DNA from: Vulcanimicrobiota bacterium
GTDB taxonomy: Bacteria; Vulcanimicrobiota; Vulcanimicrobiia; Vulcanimicrobiales; Vulcanimicrobiaceae
Length of the DNA: 24,619 bases
Assembly (NCBI GenBank): GCA_003133025.1
Contig: PKZK01000180.1
Span: 1-24,619, forward strand
Direction: 5' to 3'
In this document: positions 1,643-10,250 of the stretch, one piece after another
How the letters are laid out: each line of letters begins with the position of its first letter
How positions within the stretch are numbered: position 1 is the first letter of the stretch
Made by a program: the position numbers and the translations under genes
Notes under the pieces: model-generated
The model's database searches: none
What the model was told of the DNA's origin: nothing
The model's input: only the letters and a program-made list of their open reading frames with translations

Positions 1643-1668
1643 ATTCCATGCCCACCGCCGGGACCTTG
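1643..1668 (-). promoter_or_regulatory. Sigma-H-like promoter (CAAGG-N17-GAAT) for the decarboxylase
   Basis: Same motif and spacing recur in at least six intergenic positions; GAAT ends 10 nt before GTG 1632. Confidence 0.45.
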
Positions 1669-1777
1669 CCTCGGCCCGAGGTCTTCCGGCCCAAGTTCGG
1701 AGGGGCGCTCGATGACGCTGCGATGTGGCCCGTGAACCCACACTCCCCGTGCTTCGCCCGCCGTGTCCTGAAGCCGG

Positions 1778-1808
1778 TAATGGCTTTTTAATGGCCCTGT
1801 TCTAGATT
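1778..1808 (+). promoter_or_regulatory. Putative SARP/OmpR-type operator: TAATGGC direct repeat with 11-bp period plus TAGATT -10 box
   Basis: TAATGGC at 1778-1784 and 1789-1795; TAGATT at 1803-1808; lies upstream of a SARP gene. Confidence 0.5.
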
Positions 1809-1857
1809 GGCCTCACGGCCCGCCGATTGGGACGGCCGGTGCATGAGGACGATGGCA

Positions 1858-2628
1858 ATGACAGACGAAACGGGTGCCGGCGTCGGAACCGGACGCGCGG
1901 AAATGGGCGAGGCTTGGGGCCGGATCGATCTCCTCTCCGGCGAGATCCGGACGAACGAACCGGGAACGAAGCTGACGCGCCTCGAGCGCGCGGTACTCGT
2001 GTACCTCGCGGTCAAGCGCGGCGGCAGCCGCGAGGAGATCGCCGACACGCTGTTCGGACACCTCGACCTCGAGTCGGCGCACAATACCCTGAAGGTGGCG
2101 ATCTGCCGGGCGCGCCGCAAATGCGGCTTGCCGCCCATCGTCAACTGGAGCGACGGCCGATACGCGCTGACGGAGTGCCCGCTGGACGAACTCCGTGCGA
2201 CCGAGAGCGCCGTGCGGCTGACCCGTCAAGCCCGGCGCCGGCTCTGCGCCGGCGAGATGGCCCGCTTCGAGGCCTACGCGCAGCGCCTCAAGCGGAGGGT
2301 CAAGGATCCTTGGGCGTGTGAACCCTGGTTCGAGCCGATCGAGTGGCGCCTCGGACATCTCAACCGCGAGGTGTGCACGGTCCTGGCCACGGACGCCCTG
2401 CTCGCCGGCGACCCGGCACGGGCCCTCGGACTCGCGATCGAATACGAAGACGGCGAGTCCCTGGACGAGGAGCCCCGCGAGATCGCCATCCGGGCCTACC
2501 ACGCCCTGGGCAACCGCGGCGCCGCACTAGCCGAGTTCCTTCGCTACGAGCGCGCCCTCGAGCGCGAACTGGGGATCAAGCCGGGTGAAAATCTGCGGAA
2601 TCTGGCGTTCAAAGGCATCGCGCAATAG
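1858..2628 (+). CDS. SARP-family transcriptional regulator (OmpR-type wHTH + BTAD), ~256 aa
   Basis: wHTH segment LTRLERAVLVYLA..SREEIADTLF..NTLKVAICRARR..GRYAL; BTAD segment LDEEPREIAIRAYHALGNRGAALAEF..LERELGIKP; GAGGA 8 nt before ATG 1858. Confidence 0.85.
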   Translation: MTDETGAGVGTGRAEMGEAWGRIDLLSGEIRTNEPGTKLTRLERAVLVYLAVKRGGSREEIADTLFGHLDLESAHNTLKVAICRARRKCGLPPIVNWSDGRYALTECPLDELRATESAVRLTRQARRRLCAGEMARFEAYAQRLKRRVKDPWACEPWFEPIEWRLGHLNREVCTVLATDALLAGDPARALGLAIEYEDGESLDEEPREIAIRAYHALGNRGAALAEFLRYERALERELGIKPGENLRNLAFKGIAQ

Positions 2629-2661
2629 GGTTGGGTACGCGGGTCCGTCCAATACGACCGA

Positions 2662-5520
2662 GTGCCCCCGCTACCCGACTCTTTGGCGGCGATTATTCAG
2701 CGAATCGACAAAGCGGACGTCGATCTCATTCTGGTGACCGCACCCGCGGGTTTTGGGAAGACCACGTTTGCAACGAGATTAGCGGCGACTCGTCGAGCCA
2801 GGGCGAGTTGCGACGTGTCGGGTTTAGCGCTGATCGATGTCGCGAAGAGCCTGCTCGAAGCTCTCGCCACCGAGAGCCCCCAGCGCGGACGCGCGCTGGC
2901 AGAGGCGCGTGCTTCATCCGACCCAAGCAATCCGGCCGACTGGCAAACTCTCGTCCAGCGCCTTTGGGTGCTCCCTCCGTCAGAGCCATCGTATCTTACT
3001 CTAGATAACGTCGAGGCGGCGACCTCGCACGCCGACATTCTTTCCTTCATCGGCACCCTCTTGTCGTGCCGCCCGAGCGGGAGAAGGGTCATACTCTGTT
3101 CGCGCAGCCGGCTGCCGAACGACATCAGTAGGCACGCCTTGCCTCATCGCACCGAATTCATCGGAATGGACGATCTGCGGCTGAGCCGCCATGAGGTTCT
3201 CGAGTTATTCCGAGCAGCCGGCGCCGGCGAAGAGTTGGCCGACGAGGTGTTCGCACGAACGGCGGGTTGGCCCATAGCGGTTCAACTCATGCGTAGGCTC
3301 GAGGTGGAAGGCCGATTGACTGAGGCACTTCGAGGTCGAGGCCCGAAAGCTCTCGACGCACTGATCGAATACATGTCCAGCCAATATCTCGACACTCTGA
3401 GTCCGACCGAGCGCAAGGCGACGCTCTTGTCTATCGCAATTCCCAACCTGGCAAAACACGAAGCGAGCGCCTGGGCTCGCCTCAGCGCAGCGGAGTATGC
3501 CTACCTGTTACGCGAATCGCCTCTATTACGCGAATCGGACTCCGGCCAGGTAGAGCCCCACCCGCTGCTGCGATCGATTGCTGCGGCACGGTACGGTCCG
3601 GAGTGCTCCGACCTCGCGAAGGACACCGCAGCGGCGTGTCAGCGGGACGGCGATGCCCTTCGTGCGGGCGAGATTTTCCTTTCCCTCGGTGACCGCGAAC
3701 GTGCTGCGGCCTGCCTAGCTAACCTACCCCCAACGACAGATCCGGCAAAGACCTATCGTCTCCTAAACGTGCTCAGCGAACTCGACTCCGAGAGCATCAT
3801 CAGCCACCCGTCGTTGTGGCTCGCCGCTTCGGAGTTCCGCCGCTTCGCCGTCCCACTCGAACAACTACTCGACGAGGCACGCCGAGTATATTACACGCTA
3901 CCCCATGACGCACCCGAGCGTCAGCGAAGTGATATCGCCATTCAATACTCCTGGCTGCTGTTACACGGTGGTAAGCCTCGTGAAGCTAAGGCAGTAATCG
4001 AGGATGCGCTCGAATTCATCGCAACCGAGGGCATCGCAGCGGAGCTGCGCGTCGTCAGGCTTTCACTCTTATCCATGCTCGGTCACTACCTAGAGGCGAG
4101 GGCCGCGACTCGCGACGTCTCGATGGCGAAGAAAAATCCGCGCCTCCACGCACAGCTCATGGACTTCATCGAGGCGACTACCGCCCTCCGTAGCGGTGAG
4201 TACGAGCGCGGTATCTCGCTGCTCGAAGAAACGGCGCGTCTGGCTCGACACCACGGGCTCGTTTCGCGCCTTCTCATCAGTTTATCAAATCTAGCTTTTG
4301 AGGCCTGGTACGCCGGAGACGACGAACGATTGGCGCGAGCGGTAGCGGAAATACGCGCCGCTTTACTCCCGGGCTTCGAGAACGCCTGGCACTTTTGGCT
4401 CGAGGCTGTTGCAGGAGACGACGACGCTCAACCCACCGGCTTCGAGGCCGTAACGCTGCGAACCATCGGTTTTCTGTTTCTTGCTTCGAGCGCGTCGGGT
4501 ACGAAGCGCGTACAGTTCGTGAGACGCGCGGTAGCGGAGTCGGATATCTCAGGCGACGTTGGCCTGCGCGTAATCTCGCGGATTGCAGCCGCCGAGTACG
4601 ATCCAGAGTTCAAGTTGGATCACGTAGCGGCCGCCTGCGACTTGGCTGCCTCGATCGATATCGCTCCGCTTCGCAACGCGGTTCTCGCATATGCTCGCCA
4701 AGACCCCGATCTGGGCGCGCTCCAGCGCTTTGTAGAGCTGCGGCTGCGTCGTAGTCCGCAGATCGCGTCCGGCATCGTGATCGAGCTCGTTAGGGGTAAG
4801 GTATTTCGCGACGGCCATCCCGTCGACGTCTCAACCCGCGAATTTGCGCTGGTGGCGCTCTTGGCGGTAAGCGGCCGGGCCATGCATCGCGATTCCATCG
4901 CCGACGCTCTTTGGCCCGATTTGGATGCGGACGCAGCCGCGAACAACCTCCGAGTCGTCGTGCACAAGCTTCGTAAGAAGCTGGGTGACGTCGCGATCCT
5001 CTCTATACGTGGAGGCTACGGGCTCGGCGCTGACGTATCGATCGATTTATCGAATATCGAGAGCCTCGTGCACGAGTGCTCGCTCATGGAAACGATACCC
5101 CCCGAACGCGCGCGAGCGTTGCGCAAATATCTCGACTCGGAAATGGACCCCACGCGCGAGGAACTCCTTCGCTACAATTGGTACGTTTCGCTCGACCACC
5201 GCCTGGCCGAACTGCGCCGAACGGCGACACTGACCTTGGCCAAAGACGCGTATGCACGTGGAGCTTGGAGCGTCGCTCAGCGTCACGCGGGCGAGCTCAT
5301 GGATCGAGACGCCACGGACGAATGCGCTTGCGAGATCATGCTCCGGACGCTCCTCAGAACATCCGACCTCACTGCCGCGAGGCGGCAATTGAACCGTTTC
5401 CTAACGGCCGTTGCCGAGGAAGGTGACGAGCTCGCCGAGCGGCGCATGCGAAGCATTTTTAGCCGCGAACTCAAGGCGAGCCCATTGCGGCAAGACTCGA
5501 CATCGCTCCTATCGTCGTAG
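2662..5520 (+). CDS. MalT-like STAND NTPase regulator: ATPase + helical/TPR-like sensor + C-terminal wHTH-BTAD, 952 aa
   Basis: Walker A APAGFGKTT, Walker B LTLDNVE, LCSRSR, TAGWP (STAND GxP motif), HPLLR; C-terminal STREFALVALL..RDSIADALWPD..LRVVVHKLRKKLG..GGYGL and BTAD-like DATDECACEIMLR. Confidence 0.85.
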   Translation: MPPLPDSLAAIIQRIDKADVDLILVTAPAGFGKTTFATRLAATRRARASCDVSGLALIDVAKSLLEALATESPQRGRALAEARASSDPSNPADWQTLVQRLWVLPPSEPSYLTLDNVEAATSHADILSFIGTLLSCRPSGRRVILCSRSRLPNDISRHALPHRTEFIGMDDLRLSRHEVLELFRAAGAGEELADEVFARTAGWPIAVQLMRRLEVEGRLTEALRGRGPKALDALIEYMSSQYLDTLSPTERKATLLSIAIPNLAKHEASAWARLSAAEYAYLLRESPLLRESDSGQVEPHPLLRSIAAARYGPECSDLAKDTAAACQRDGDALRAGEIFLSLGDRERAAACLANLPPTTDPAKTYRLLNVLSELDSESIISHPSLWLAASEFRRFAVPLEQLLDEARRVYYTLPHDAPERQRSDIAIQYSWLLLHGGKPREAKAVIEDALEFIATEGIAAELRVVRLSLLSMLGHYLEARAATRDVSMAKKNPRLHAQLMDFIEATTALRSGEYERGISLLEETARLARHHGLVSRLLISLSNLAFEAWYAGDDERLARAVAEIRAALLPGFENAWHFWLEAVAGDDDAQPTGFEAVTLRTIGFLFLASSASGTKRVQFVRRAVAESDISGDVGLRVISRIAAAEYDPEFKLDHVAAACDLAASIDIAPLRNAVLAYARQDPDLGALQRFVELRLRRSPQIASGIVIELVRGKVFRDGHPVDVSTREFALVALLAVSGRAMHRDSIADALWPDLDADAAANNLRVVVHKLRKKLGDVAILSIRGGYGLGADVSIDLSNIESLVHECSLMETIPPERARALRKYLDSEMDPTREELLRYNWYVSLDHRLAELRRTATLTLAKDAYARGAWSVAQRHAGELMDRDATDECACEIMLRTLLRTSDLTAARRQLNRFLTAVAEEGDELAERRMRSIFSRELKASPLRQDSTSLLSS

Positions 5521-5557
5521 AACGCGCAGCATGGAAAGCGCCCTGCGCTCACCCTTC

Positions 5558-6616
5558 CTAGTGAAGAAACGTTCGCTTGAGGATGCCGTTGCTATAGATG
5601 CCCTCGCACGAGATCGTCGGGGCCATCTCGTTACTAGTCTCGAGACTTAGCTCGCTAACGACCCGTTCGCAGACCTGCTCGTAGGTCAGCGGCCGCTCTG
5701 CTTTTTCCTTCAGCGCTCGTTCCAAGACTTCTACGAGCGCGTTGGTGAAGAACGTTCCACTCTCCATCACTTCCATATAACGGTCTGCCTGGCAGGCCGC
5801 AAAGTGAACGAATGGAATCCGCAGATCGCTCGAGCTATCCGTCGCTTGGGGGACCAATATACCGTAGAGGTCTCGATCCATGTCACAGACCTGCCTCACC
5901 ACGTCGGAGGATGAGGCATCCTCGTCGGGCTCGACTCGAGGCTTTAACTCCACCGGTGCTTTCGGCCCGAGCGCTTTCCCCTTCTGTCCCGAATGGTCTC
6001 CCGGTAACGAAAATCCGCCCGCCGCGCATGCATCGATGATGCTGATGAAACGCACGCCGCGAGGGAAGCGGGCCAAGAGGTCGGCGAACTCGGAAACCAA
6101 CATCATCCGGTCGTAAAGCAGGATCCCCGTCGTAGGAAAATGGGCGCCATCTGCGAGATGCGACGGCTGGGACGTTGGATTGAACATCTGAAGAGCTATC
6201 GGCGGCTTCACGGCGATCGGCTCTTCCAGCCTGCCGCGTGCGGAATCTGCGTCACCGGTAGCAAGCCGCTTTCGGCCGACCGGACCACTTGGCACGACCT
6301 CAGACGCAACGCTCCCGGTGATCACTCCCCCAACAGCCTGGCTCTCGAAACCGACTTCGAAGCGGACTCCATGCCCGTGAAAACTAAACAATACCGTATC
6401 GCCCGCTTTCGCGCGTAAAGCGAGGTCCCCCAGCGCGGCTACTGCAGTCGCTACGGTAGCGTCAGAAAAAACGACGCTTTCCAGGGGTTCCGGGGCCAGC
6501 CTCTCGATAACCCTTCTTAATTTCTGCGCACTATACACACACCCCCTGAGCGTGAGATGGAGGTGGGCAAAACGCTCGCTCACATAATCCATCCCGATAT
6601 GCAAAGCATAAAACAT
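5558..6616 (-). CDS. Caspase-like protease (peptidase C14, metacaspase/orthocaspase type), ~352 aa
   Basis: YALHIGMDY, LRGCV, GDTVLFSFHGHG (catalytic His), IIDAC (catalytic Cys), p10-like FAACQADR..GTFFTNALVEVL; GAGGAGG RBS before ATG 6616. Confidence 0.85.
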   Translation of the reverse strand: MFYALHIGMDYVSERFAHLHLTLRGCVYSAQKLRRVIERLAPEPLESVVFSDATVATAVAALGDLALRAKAGDTVLFSFHGHGVRFEVGFESQAVGGVITGSVASEVVPSGPVGRKRLATGDADSARGRLEEPIAVKPPIALQMFNPTSQPSHLADGAHFPTTGILLYDRMMLVSEFADLLARFPRGVRFISIIDACAAGGFSLPGDHSGQKGKALGPKAPVELKPRVEPDEDASSSDVVRQVCDMDRDLYGILVPQATDSSSDLRIPFVHFAACQADRYMEVMESGTFFTNALVEVLERALKEKAERPLTYEQVCERVVSELSLETSNEMAPTISCEGIYSNGILKRTFLH

Positions 6617-6637
6617 AAACGCCCTTCCTCCTCTACG

Positions 6638-6666
6638 TTGCGCAGCCACGAGAAACCGTGTATACT
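6638..6666 (+). promoter_or_regulatory. Sigma70-type promoter TTGCGC-N17-TATACT for the peptide + radical SAM operon
   Basis: -35 at 6638-6643 and -10 at 6661-6666 with a 17-nt spacer; RBS GAGGAGG at 6714-6720. Confidence 0.6.
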
Positions 6667-6731
6667 CGTTCTACGAGCAAGAGAGCGATTCTTGCCGCCC
6701 TTAAATTGAAGACGAGGAGGCCTTACTAATC

Positions 6732-7112
6732 ATGGGCACGTCGCCTGACGAACAATCAAAGAGCGGGGCGGAACCAGTTGCTAAACCAACTTCTGCCAAA
6801 CCACCCCTGAGCGCAAAGGCGGGAGTCACGCCGAGGTCGATGACAATCTACCTTTCAGATGGTAGCGTGTATCCGGTTTCCGACCCCGGCACGATTGCGC
6901 AGATTCATGGGGACGTGCCCCCTCCTCCGATTCCGAGCCCGTATCTAGGGCCGAGCCTATATCCGGACGCGGCGAATCCCGGACCGCTCGCCCTTCCATA
7001 TCTCGAAGAAACGTACTACCCCTACCCCACCGACCCGACGCCTCATCCAGACTTTGACTGGCGTGAGATAACCGACGAGGCGGCAGTGCGCAAGATCCTA
7101 GGCTTATCCTGA
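6732..7112 (+). CDS. 126-aa Pro/Tyr-rich hypothetical protein; candidate precursor/substrate of the adjacent radical SAM enzyme
   Basis: Strong RBS and promoter; ends 16 nt before the rSAM gene; 24 Pro and 8 Tyr; duplicated internal motifs. Function is inferred. Confidence 0.75.
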   Translation: MGTSPDEQSKSGAEPVAKPTSAKPPLSAKAGVTPRSMTIYLSDGSVYPVSDPGTIAQIHGDVPPPPIPSPYLGPSLYPDAANPGPLALPYLEETYYPYPTDPTPHPDFDWREITDEAAVRKILGLS

Positions 7113-7128
7113 ACCTTCTCGGGGCGAT

Positions 7129-8178
7129 ATGGAAATTGCACGCCTGCGGCCTCGCGTATTAACGCTCGTCACTACGCATCAGTGCACGGCAGCATGCGAT
7201 CACTGCTGTTTCGCTTGCACGCCACGGGTAACGAAGCGTATCCCTAAGGCCCGCCTTGCGAGCCTTATCGATGAGGCGAGCGCAATTGCGTCGATAGGCA
7301 CGATCTCCTTCGTCGGTGGCGAGTGCTTCTTGCTCGGTCGCGAATTGGACGATCATTTCAGGCGGGCTTCAAAGCACGGCCTCAAGGTCTCCACGACGAC
7401 CAATGGGTATTGGGCAGTAACCGAAAAGAGCGCGCGCGAGCGGATGGAGCGCGCCGCGGACGCCGGCCTCGGCGACATCACCCTCAGTACGGGTGAGATG
7501 CATGCAAAGTTCGTGCCGCCCGAACGCATAGTTCACGCAGCGGCTGCAGCGTTCGATTTAGGGATGCAGGTTCACGTCGCCATCGAGGATTTCGCCGACA
7601 CGACCTTCGACTGGCGATGGATCGTCGATGCGCGTGAGATACGCGAGCGCACGCCGGATCCACGTCTCGAGCTCTTTAGGCGCTCCTGGATTCCGCACGC
7701 CGACGGCGTCGGACGAGCCGTGCTCCGCCACAGCGCGGATGACCGCAGATTTCGACCCGATCCAGTTCCGGGATGCGGTTTCATCTTTGACGATCTCACC
7801 GTTACGCCCGACCTTTCGCTTGCGGCGTGTTGCGGTTATCCCATCGAGTCGATTCCCGACCTTCACCTCGGGTCCGTCGCAAACAAAACCATCCAAGAGG
7901 TCGTCGAAGAAGCGCCCGACGACTTCTTGAAGGTGATGCTGCACGTGGCGGGCCCGGAGCTCATCTTGGAGTTCGTAAAGAGGTTTATCCCAAACTACGT
8001 ATTGCCGGTGGAGAACGTGCACATGTGCCAGACCTGCCTGCACCTGCATCGCGACCCCGTTGCCCTTACCATAGTGAACGAGCACCGCGCTGAGATCGAG
8101 AGTAGAATCTGGGAGTTGTTCGACAGAAAGCGCGCACGCCCGACCAATCACGATCGCATGGCGGGCGCCGCAGGCTGA
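7129..8178 (+). CDS. Radical SAM enzyme with auxiliary Fe-S (twitch/SPASM-like) domain, EpeE/YydG-like, 349 aa
   Basis: C19xxxC23xxC26C27 (CTAACDHCCF), GGE, TNGYWA, and C216, C234-C235, C300xxC303. Confidence 0.88.
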   Translation: MEIARLRPRVLTLVTTHQCTAACDHCCFACTPRVTKRIPKARLASLIDEASAIASIGTISFVGGECFLLGRELDDHFRRASKHGLKVSTTTNGYWAVTEKSARERMERAADAGLGDITLSTGEMHAKFVPPERIVHAAAAAFDLGMQVHVAIEDFADTTFDWRWIVDAREIRERTPDPRLELFRRSWIPHADGVGRAVLRHSADDRRFRPDPVPGCGFIFDDLTVTPDLSLAACCGYPIESIPDLHLGSVANKTIQEVVEEAPDDFLKVMLHVAGPELILEFVKRFIPNYVLPVENVHMCQTCLHLHRDPVALTIVNEHRAEIESRIWELFDRKRARPTNHDRMAGAAG

Positions 8179-8194
8179 CGGCATTCGGGTGCAT

Positions 8195-8231
8195 CTGCGG
8201 CGCACGACGCTTCGTGCACGGTCCGCCGCAG
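8195..8231. terminator. Stem-loop between the convergent rSAM and M61 genes
   Basis: CTGCGGCG/CGCCGCAG outer stem with inner GCACGA/TCGTGC; no clear U-tract. Confidence 0.3.
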
Positions 8232-8286
8232 TGGGCCGCCTGACCCCAAGTTATCTTCGTTCTCAATCGAGCGGCCCGCGAGGGAC

Positions 8287-10152
8287 TCAGGTCGCTGCGG
8301 GCGCCCTAGGCGCGGCGATGTCTTTGAGCACGTCCGGCGTATTGGGAATGCGCTCGAGGTGCGGAAAGCGCGGTCCGCCGTGGTAATCGATGCTGACCTC
8401 ACGATATGTGTTGCCGGCGGTCAAGAGGAGCCGTACCTTACCGCCGCTCTGCGCGGCCTTGAGCGCACTGTCGAGTTGCGACTGACCGTCGGTGAGGGTG
8501 CGGCCGTCGATGCCGATGAGCTTCATGCCGGGTCCCAGGCCGGCTTTGGCGGCCGGTGATCCGTCGAGTACGTCGCCGACGACGCCCTGCGCGCTGGCCG
8601 AGAAGCCCAGCGAGTACCGCGCATCGAGTCCCCCGGCGTAACGGCCGAGCCTGCTGAACGCACTCGGTTCCGCCTGGTAGACGACCCGGTATCCGCCCGC
8701 CTCGAACGGGTTGGGCGGATGGGGCGCGACTGCGTCGAGGCGTGTGTGGAAGAATCCGGCCCAGTCGTACGGCTGCACGGCATTGAGGCCATCGACGACG
8801 TCCTGGCGCGTATAGGTCACCACGATCGGGCCCGTGTCGTGTTGACCAAAAAACGCCCGCGTGAAATCGTCGAGCGACCGTTTGCCGCCGGAGAGCTTGC
8901 GGATCGTGACGTCGGCCTCGAGCCAGAGTAGCGCGCCTTCAGTGTAGTAATCCTGCGTGCGGCGTGCCGCGGCGAAGGCGCGCGAGCCGCGCAGCACCGA
9001 CGCGGCCGTCGCGGTATCGACCAGCGGACGCGTGGCGCGTCCGGTGGTCGTGTCGAGGCTCGCGTATTCGCCCACCAGCACGTCGAGCCACTGCGCCTGC
9101 GTCCAAGCGCCGCTGCGCTCGACCTGCAACTGCCCGTAATGCTGCGTCATGCCCTCGTACACCCAGAGCAGATCGTCGACCATGGGCACCTGGAGGTTGG
9201 GCGTGGCGAGATCGGCGGGGCGGCGGTATTTGCCGTCCCACGAATGGTTGAACTCGTGTCCCAGCAGATCGCCCAGTGACCCGGCGAAGCCCTTATCCGA
9301 CGTCAGACTGTCGCCGCTGGAACCGTCGTCGCTCGACTGATGGTGTTCCAGGCCCTGTCCGGGCAACACGTCGGAGACGGTCAGCAAGAACGTGTAGTGG
9401 TTGAAGTGGCGAGCGCCGTAGAGCGCGGCCATTTCGCGCACGAGCCTGCGCAGATTTTCGACGTGCTTGTCGGAGATTTCGAGCTGGTCTTGCGTGTCGG
9501 CGAAGATCGCGATGTCGACCGGCGCCCCGCTTATCGCGCCCAGCGGAATCTTCTTCACGTTGAGGCCGGCATCGATCGGCGAGTCGACGAGTTGTTCCAA
9601 GGAAACCGGTTTGAACGAAACCGTCGCGCCGCTTTGCCCCGTGGATTCGAGCGCGGTCGCCCACTGCCAATCGGAGCCGGGCAAGGTTAGCGACGGCGCA
9701 ATGATCTGCGTCGAATAGTTTTCGACGTACGGCGTCAACACGACGCGGTTCCAACTCAGCGACATGATGTTCGGCGTGGCCAATCGTCCGCCGTCGGCGC
9801 CGGCGTTGTAGTCGTCGAAGCTGACCTCGAGTCCGCTCTTCCCGGCCGGCACGTCGACGTAGATCGCGTAGAGGTCGACCGGATCTCGCCGCCAGGCCAA
9901 GGCCTCGCCGCCACTGCTCACCGTAATGCTCGCAACCTCTGAGACCGGGCCCGTCGGTCCGTGCGTACCCGGTATCCACTTCGGATAGACGAGTTTCACC
10001 CGACCGCTTACGCCCGGAATCGTTTCGTGCACGTGGATGACGCCGCGCGTCACTTCACGCGTGTCGACCGATAACCCGATCGGAGCCGCGTCGGCTCGCG
10101 CCAAGGAAGAAGCGCCCGCGACGAACGCGAGCGTAAAGAGCAGTACTTTCAC
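8287..10152 (-). CDS. Secreted M61-family (glycyl aminopeptidase-like) metallopeptidase with C-terminal PDZ domain, ~621 aa
   Basis: Signal peptide (MKVLLFTLAFVAGASSLARA), PKWIPG, GLEH, HEFNH zinc motif, LWVYEGMT, PDZ-like GSPAAKAGL..LIGIDG. Confidence 0.9.
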   Translation of the reverse strand: MKVLLFTLAFVAGASSLARADAAPIGLSVDTREVTRGVIHVHETIPGVSGRVKLVYPKWIPGTHGPTGPVSEVASITVSSGGEALAWRRDPVDLYAIYVDVPAGKSGLEVSFDDYNAGADGGRLATPNIMSLSWNRVVLTPYVENYSTQIIAPSLTLPGSDWQWATALESTGQSGATVSFKPVSLEQLVDSPIDAGLNVKKIPLGAISGAPVDIAIFADTQDQLEISDKHVENLRRLVREMAALYGARHFNHYTFLLTVSDVLPGQGLEHHQSSDDGSSGDSLTSDKGFAGSLGDLLGHEFNHSWDGKYRRPADLATPNLQVPMVDDLLWVYEGMTQHYGQLQVERSGAWTQAQWLDVLVGEYASLDTTTGRATRPLVDTATAASVLRGSRAFAAARRTQDYYTEGALLWLEADVTIRKLSGGKRSLDDFTRAFFGQHDTGPIVVTYTRQDVVDGLNAVQPYDWAGFFHTRLDAVAPHPPNPFEAGGYRVVYQAEPSAFSRLGRYAGGLDARYSLGFSASAQGVVGDVLDGSPAAKAGLGPGMKLIGIDGRTLTDGQSQLDSALKAAQSGGKVRLLLTAGNTYREVSIDYHGGPRFPHLERIPNTPDVLKDIAAPRAPAAT

Positions 10153-10205
10153 GCGAGCGGCTTCTCGCCCACGCGCCGCAGGCCTGCGACTCATCCACGG
10201 AAACT

Positions 10206-10248
10206 CGGCGAACCCCGGTGCAACGCGCAAGCGTTGCTCCGATCGCCG
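10206..10248 (-). terminator. Long stem-loop just downstream of the HNH gene
   Basis: GCAACGC-GCAA-GCGTTGC core (10220-10237) extended by CGGCGA/TCGCCG; weak U tail. Confidence 0.35.
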
Positions 10249-10250
10249 GC

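Follow-up and report, generated by a model that had tools for sequence, protein, structure and literature searches.

To our knowledge, the substrates of most bacterial caspase homologues are unknown. One case in which a metacaspase frees a peptide from its precursor is that of AtMCA-IIa, which releases Pep1 from PROPEP1 (PMC10235996). EpeE-type epimerases, which belong to the radical S-adenosylmethionine (rSAM) enzymes, are tied to the epipeptides of Bacillota in PMC13012085, and among the conflict systems presented by Kaur et al. (2020, PMC7159879) one subsystem has an rSAM enzyme proposed to modify a peptide effector. Here we describe a cassette on contig PKZK01000180.1 of a Vulcanimicrobiota bacterium, in which a STAND-type regulator, a C14 caspase-like protease, a small Pro/Tyr-rich protein and an EpeE-like rSAM enzyme are encoded side by side. 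Throughout, the window denotes the full stretch of 24,619 nucleotides (nt) that was analysed, L-numbers denote compared loci and G-numbers the genomes of relatives. The cassette is real and recurring and is apparently undescribed, although the source data of PMC7159879, for example, may contain a bioinformatic mention of it. The initial annotation of this DNA knew of no pathway that pairs a C14 protease with an EpeE-type enzyme, and none was found in the literature searched, which was mostly open-access and taken without supplements. The parts of the locus are as follows, with wHTH standing for winged helix-turn-helix, aa for amino acids and ORF for open reading frame.

1807..2628, + strand: stand-alone wHTH-BTAD regulator, 273 aa (Pfam BTAD E 3.9e-9, Trans_reg_C E 3e-4); a later ATG may be the true start; probable extra member
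2662..5520, + strand: MalT-like transcription regulator, 952 aa, with STAND NTPase, helical sensor, wHTH and BTAD-like parts (Pfam, NCBIfam, Walker motifs)
5558..6616, - strand: C14 caspase-like protease of the GSU0716 type, 352 aa (PF00656 E 1.5e-11, fold, alignments)
6617..6731, no strand: divergent control region, 115 bp, with a Shine-Dalgarno sequence on each strand (from the sequence)
6732..7112, + strand: Pro/Tyr-rich small protein, 126 aa, predicted precursor (ORF, L114 homologue, complex model)
7071..7106, + strand: C-terminal helix of the small protein (residues 114-125), predicted follower-like element that docks on the rSAM enzyme (complex-model interface, stretch shared with the L114 ORF)
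7129..8178, + strand: EpeE/YydG-like rSAM enzyme, 349 aa (fold, cysteines, TIGR04078 89 bits)
8287..10110 (start approximate), - strand: secreted M61 aminopeptidase with PDZ domain, probable passenger (Pfam)

The ORFs of the STAND protein, the caspase, the small protein and the rSAM enzyme are all present at these coordinates. The caspase starts at the ATG at 6616 and not at the upstream GTG at 6649, with a GAGGAGG sequence 10 nt before it and homologues that begin at the same point. From this ATG to that of the small protein the distance is exactly 115 bp, a second GAGGAGG lies 11 nt before the latter, and 16 nt separate the stop codon of the small protein gene from the rSAM gene; both spacings had been given in the initial annotation and are exact in the sequence. 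The atypical composition that it attributed to the four genes is equally clear, their G+C contents at third codon positions (GC3) being 0.68, 0.66, 0.61 and 0.71 for the STAND, caspase, small protein and rSAM genes, respectively, all in the lowest 3 % of the 907 long ORFs of the genome (0.4-2.9 %; the median GC3 of these ORFs is 0.83). Since the flanking HNH and decarboxylase genes adjoin, with no cassette between them, in G063, G105 and G280, and enclose unrelated genes in G045, the region from about 1650 to 10250 (8.5 kb) is an insertion, missing at this site in 4/4 relatives compared. It also holds the stand-alone wHTH-BTAD gene at 1807-2628, a fifth member that had been missed when the system was described as one of four genes, and the secreted M61 peptidase, whose GC3 of 0.82 is host-like and which is absent from the recurring neighbours.

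Recurrence was assessed on 56 loci from GTDB, on 80 metagenome loci (the best of 204) and on 30 loci that came out of a search of 401 genomes of the phylum (rSAM gene in 20/401), and the 168 rSAM-bearing loci were grouped into 127 clusters at 90 % identity. This neighbourhood search, which had been proposed beforehand as a check of the candidate system, speaks against the refuting case that its genes never co-occur elsewhere: it found a STAND-wHTH gene near the rSAM gene in 42 of the 50 clusters of the host-lineage clade and in 0 of the 77 outside it. A C14 caspase gene lies beside the rSAM gene in four of the five clusters of the window's subclade, the fifth (L113) being a 2.2-kb contig with <600 bp of flank on each side; elsewhere, caspases occur in 2/45 clusters of the rest of the clade (L117 and L135) and in 3/122 of all the rest. 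At the measured density of caspase genes (10 per 78 Mb), the 36 kb of subclade flanks outside the window should contain some 0.005 of them, and three are seen; this density is a lower bound because the search missed the window's own caspase. In a careful rSAM tree of 39 rows chosen to cover the near clade, the window, L113, L114, L134 and L009/L010 fall into one starred clade (98/91), where the window pairs with L114/L119 (95/94) and L134 with L009/L010 (98/89). The caspase tree (57 rows, with 42 of 85 eligible database matches) returns the same pairs with support of 95 and 99, though the layouts differ: the caspase gene begins 6-7 nt after the rSAM stop codon in L114/L119, L009/L010 have the window's divergent layout with no STAND gene within 8 kb, and L134 has all cassette parts with the caspase behind the STAND gene. 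It is almost certain that these genes form a recurring unit under selection.

The rSAM enzyme had been called EpeE-like, and the layout likened to that of clusters with an rSAM/SPASM-type enzyme. The fold and the cysteines support the EpeE label: in a Foldseek search with its model (predicted local distance difference test score, pLDDT, 94), ranks 1-9 are all EpeE (E 6e-18 to 1e-16, template modelling (TM) scores 0.70-0.81), followed by BlsE as the next fold (4e-10); the identity of the enzyme to EpeE is ~20 %. Besides the CxxxCxxC motif, the enzyme has four auxiliary-cluster cysteines (216, 234, 300 and 303) that align with cysteines of EpeE (alignment to 8AI1) which we take to be cluster ligands there. 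Cys235 aligns with C223, the second residue of the CC pair in EpeE, which is the H-donor cysteine according to PMC13012085. In an alignment of 120 full-length representatives of the 127 clusters, the auxiliary cysteines and C235 are each conserved in 119 or all 120 (C235 in 119/120), and 285 homologues of the enzyme were found in all. Pfam returns no SPASM match. By its anatomy the enzyme is of the one-auxiliary-cluster EpeE (T-SPASM) type, and with 89.1 bits against TIGR04078, whose cut-off is 300, it lies outside the epipeptide family; searches with Pfam and NCBIfam detected no EpeX-like precursor, EpeP or EpeAB genes in the insertion. Single-nucleotide polymorphisms (SNPs) between strains are 2 synonymous and 0 non-synonymous in the rSAM gene. 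Distant relatives of the enzyme were also seen on plasmids of Thermus, Eleftheria and Streptomyces (L200-L202), behind hypothetical genes and with a serine hydrolase nearby in 2/3, one locus also having SdpI and a methyltransferase.

The 126-aa protein encoded just before it contains 24 Pro and 8 Tyr residues. It belongs to no Pfam or NCBIfam family, and a protein search returned only itself or a same-species match; the ESM Atlas gave no usable feature match for it or for the small protein common in the wider clade (see below), structure matches having TM scores of at most 0.51. Its last 50 residues align with the entire 54-aa ORF of L114 (z 5.0, 1/1000 shuffles); this pairing ranks first among 10 comparisons and is the one that the trees would lead one to expect. 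Another strain has an in-frame 6-nt deletion in the gene, and the SNPs are 1 synonymous and 0 non-synonymous. Contigs from RNA libraries cover the ORF in 4/4 runs (two of them apparent duplicates) and two contigs bridge to the rSAM start, but such contigs cannot rank genes and DNA carry-over is possible.

A complex model of this protein with the rSAM enzyme scored 0.64, against 0.43 for the best of 3 controls; the mark set for such scores is reached by 116 of 157 solved pairs and by 2 of 215 mismatched ones. The runs agree in at least 13 % of contacts, with a pLDDT of at least 35 for the partner. Residues 114-125 are placed on rSAM residues 210-215, 273-285 and 323-330, and this docked tail is the stretch common to the L114 ORF. 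The model thus predicts that the tail helix of the 126-aa protein docks on the rSAM enzyme. Together with the tail homology, it makes the 126-aa protein a plausible partner in the modification proposed by the initial annotation; the protein is probably the substrate. When the tail motif was compared with the common small-protein family, p was 0.011 (11 targets), a score that an unrelated control equalled. The window gives no support for a helix shared with the L009/L010 precursors (p 0.28), L114 only a weak sign of one (p 0.027, 11 targets), and a beta-hairpin or GP motif shared across the small ORFs was an early idea that the comparison did not support.

For the caspase, the best fold match of the model (pLDDT 61, falling below 50 in two long low-confidence inserts at 89-161 and 204-234) is 3bij (E 9.6e-13). 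The H82/C197 dyad is intact and invariant in 92/92 aligned sequences, D195 is kept, and the His-Gly and Asp-x-Cys motifs are present. Ser29 stands at the Asp of the GCxND motif, presumably the S1-site residue. This position is Ser in the clade of the window's caspase and His in L009/L010, and the Asp is kept in 72/77 other homologues. The S1 pocket of Arg/Lys-specific metacaspases is acidic, as given in PMC10235996, and it is likely changed here, which would predict an altered cleavage specificity. A full phmmer search with the protein gave 120 matches, the best non-self one at 32 % identity, with the L119 caspase (P0133) as match 11 of 119 non-self in 1.84 billion proteins; a word-index protein search returned self matches only, and when 348 genomes of the family were searched with a clade-specific profile, matches came from the window and from two L009-type genomes only. 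The caspase gene is flanked by an imperfect inverted repeat of 23 nt (78 %) at 5502-5524 and 6667-6689; its length lies within that of chance pairs, and no inversion joint was seen at it in 4 DNA runs.

The 952-aa protein is matched by Pfam AAA_16, NB-ARC (weakly) and Trans_reg_C, and by the MalT model at E 1e-11, under the equivalog cut-off and hence not as MalT itself. It has a Walker A motif (GFGKTT) at 30, a Walker B motif (LTLDNV) at 112 and a C-terminal DNA-binding domain, and judged by sequence it has the architecture of a transcription activator, not that of a nucleotide-binding leucine-rich-repeat (NLR) effector. The STAND part of its earlier designation as a STAND-BTAD regulator is borne out, whereas Pfam does not call BTAD on it; the assignment of this domain follows from full-length homologues, whose C-termini match the neighbouring BTAD protein. 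The two best non-self matches of that stand-alone protein adjoin caspases, one in L101 (no rSAM gene) and one in L134 (full cassette), and L113 also has a wHTH gene behind its rSAM gene. No rSAM or caspase gene occurs in the flanks read around two other STAND paralogues of the genome. The defence role suggested by the initial annotation receives no specific support: PADLOC returned a generic caspase (residues 3-88) and weak pVip matches, and the STAND protein looks like an activator.

Precursor-like proteins of L009/L010 contain 4-9 copies of a DEDATGTRxxGP-type core, and a basic S1 pocket would be well suited to Asp-rich repeats of this kind. In loci from outside the host lineage, the gene before the rSAM gene usually ends in a Val/Ala/Asn-rich core and lies near methyltransferases or rSAMs of the TIGR03975 type, which act on RiPPs (peptides synthesised by the ribosome that undergo post-translational modification). 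A substrate encoded directly before the rSAM gene would seem to be the pattern of the family.

Several further arrangements were seen. Two precursor-like genes flank the rSAM gene in L009 (6994-9561) and L010 (7396-9530), with cores spaced by repeated KIxxEL helices; at its S1 site the divergent caspase carries a His, and exporter genes (MFS and HlyD) adjoin. EpeE-like rSAM genes lie behind 160-240-aa precursors in L002-L006, L013, L018, L024, L035, L120-L122 and L148, from at least six phyla; these precursors have an unclassified helical leader and Val/Ala/Asn-rich cores, often together with HemK-like methyltransferases, and the loci look like hypermodified-peptide clusters. In 22 clusters (L012, L014, L016, L020, L027, L036 and others) a conserved unannotated protein of ~85-105 aa (TDLATRRR ... 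GPLDCLVTDD), for which Pfam, NCBIfam and the Atlas give no match, is encoded before the rSAM gene. The kinase-MATE site of this arrangement is itself conserved, and a variable gene of 175-230 aa comes next, then a STAND regulator in convergent orientation. Another unannotated protein, of ~220 aa, is encoded repeatedly either past the STAND gene or behind that of the rSAM enzyme (L012:12669-13316, in 14 loci; L007:9140-9856). Neighbours of the rSAM gene in L008 (9185-10222), L116 (8502-9779), L075 and L128 have weak matches to Bacillus_HBL, to Vps62/Toxin_10 or to proteases of the sedolisin or subtilase type, and the cassette seems to carry interchangeable cargo.

The most likely reading of the cassette is a regulator-controlled RiPP-like pathway with docking, epimerisation and then caspase cleavage, to which we give about an even chance. 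The STAND-wHTH-BTAD regulator would switch on the divergent genes, and the 126-aa protein is predicted by the complex model to dock its C-terminal helix on the EpeE-like rSAM enzyme, which would then convert one or more residues to the D form by C-alpha epimerisation. The core would be the Pro/Tyr segment just before the helix, at about residues 61-112, and the caspase would cut the product out at a non-Arg/Lys site; that it cuts the 126-aa protein is slightly favoured. As the insertion is without an exporter, the product may stay intracellular or act locally. The lack of exporter and immunity genes claimed earlier is indeed seen in the insertion of the window, but that of exporters does not extend to the whole clade, since L009/L010 have MFS and HlyD genes beside the caspase. 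A doubtful extension is a stereochemical switch, in which epimerisation would license or block caspase cleavage and the freed peptide would feed back on the STAND sensor; if true, this would be the first bacterial caspase dedicated to the maturation of a RiPP, as part of a circuit for signalling within the cell.

A number of observations weigh against such a pathway. As 43 of the 45 other clade loci have no caspase, the rSAM enzyme needs none in general. Related loci cannot be counted as independent events. In the caspase tree the two pairs do not come out as sisters and two branches are long, and L009/L010 stood apart from the window in a quick rSAM tree made earlier. Selection on the caspase is weaker, with 6 synonymous and 5 non-synonymous SNPs compared with 17 and 1 in the STAND gene (Fisher p 0.018), and it is frameshifted in L112, a 99.8 % identical assembly, by one G missing from a five-G run at 5848-5852. 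The missing G may be an assembly error or a natural null allele; contigs of two other strains cross the site intact. Most small ORFs of the subclade show no relation to one another, the window-L114 pair being the one significant case. On the side of the model, the pass of the complex is narrow (+0.21 for a mark of 0.20), the partner fold looks uncertain, and any amphipathic helix might fit the docking patch.

The same holds for the control loci with a caspase but no rSAM gene, which lead to the alternative that survives best: the rSAM enzyme and the small protein would be a working pair, and the caspase a separate stress or cell-death effector of the STAND/BTAD regulon, inherited along with them. 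Four of the five control loci (L207, L208, L210 and L211) have the caspase within ~4 kb of a LuxR-type regulator, three of these with an AAA/STAND domain, so caspases may be general cargo of STAND/LuxR-type regulators. In L101 a caspase gene accompanies the gene most closely related to the stand-alone BTAD gene of the window, L134 has its caspase in an operon with STAND, and elsewhere in the clade the cargo differs, with examples in proteases of the sedolisin or subtilase type and in proteins that weakly match toxin families. However, the caspase stays with the rSAM gene where STAND is missing within 8 kb (L009/L010) and directly behind it in L114/L119, the rSAM and caspase tree pairs match, and the S1 change is concentrated in rSAM-linked lineages, the control caspases having the usual motif. 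We regard this explanation as unlikely.

It is improbable that the small protein is instead an adaptor or inhibitor and that the rSAM enzyme modifies another protein, for example the caspase in its disordered inserts, thereby gating the protease in an intracellular switch. An insertion without exporter or immunity gene would fit this arrangement, as would the two long low-confidence loops of the caspase, the confident complex contacts, which cover only the tail helix, and the small protein met most often in the wider clade (in 22 clusters), conserved over its full length like a folded partner. The repeated cores of L009/L010 and the hydrophobic-core precursors of sister clades are, in contrast, typical of substrates, and most clade loci have no caspase to modify. 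If anything a shade less probable is the same pathway with another rSAM chemistry in place of epimerisation, such as a Tyr- or Pro-based cross-link: the enzyme's distance from EpeE in identity and TIGR04078 score would permit it, and a core rich in Pro and Tyr does not resemble the Val/Ile sites of EpeX, but the near-invariant H-donor Cys is one that oxidative cross-linking would presumably not need. A chance assembly of unrelated genes in an island, at a site that accepts other inserts (as in G045), is highly improbable and already largely refuted by recurrence in several layouts and by the excess of caspases in the subclade flanks.

Returning to the window as a whole, no tRNA was found in it, a sigma-70 scan of the control region gave no site above threshold, terminator counts are near chance and repeats are at chance level. 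None of 18 pattern matches on viral contigs is a relative. Fourteen peat and permafrost runs contain at least half of the window's words, and two of them may be its source.

Compared with the EACC1-caspase/VMAP/iSTAND conflict systems, the cassette has in common a caspase and a STAND NTPase in one neighbourhood, but no EACC1, MoxR, vWA, iSTAND or alpha/beta-hydrolase partner is among the genes of the insertion, and BTAD is absent from the main text of PMC7159879. The score against NF047832 is 27 bits for a cut-off of 140. With the MalT/AfsR-like STAND proteins, which are transcription activators, the 952-aa protein shares the STAND NTPase, a helical sensor region and a DNA-binding domain. MalT ends in LuxR and AfsR has its wHTH-BTAD module at the N-terminus, whereas the STAND protein of the cassette carries such a module at the C-terminus. 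The GSU0716-type metacaspases (PDB 3BIJ) and the plant type II metacaspases share with the caspase the fold, the His/Cys dyad and the proposed release of a peptide from a precursor; unlike them, it lacks the S1-site Asp, has a 70-residue insert after the catalytic His and is tied to an rSAM gene.

The epipeptide pathway epeXEPAB (yydFGHIJ) of Bacillus subtilis, with EpeE in PDB 8AI1-8AI6 and a cluster make-up taken here from PMC13012085, has in common with the cassette the rSAM fold, one auxiliary cluster, the H-donor Cys, a small gene directly before the rSAM gene and a protease in the cluster. The rSAM identity is ~20 %, however, the precursor is unrelated and the host lies outside Bacillota; a soluble C14 protease is found here in place of the membrane protease EpeP, a STAND-wHTH regulator is present, an ABC immunity transporter is not, and recognition is predicted to pass through a C-terminal helix. 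For a bacterial caspase, the cassette offers a candidate for the substrate, an enzyme as its partner and a changed residue from which a new specificity would be predicted. It also widens the EpeE-type epimerases into a large family whose precursors are very different, and suggests that recognition may pass through a C-terminal helix.

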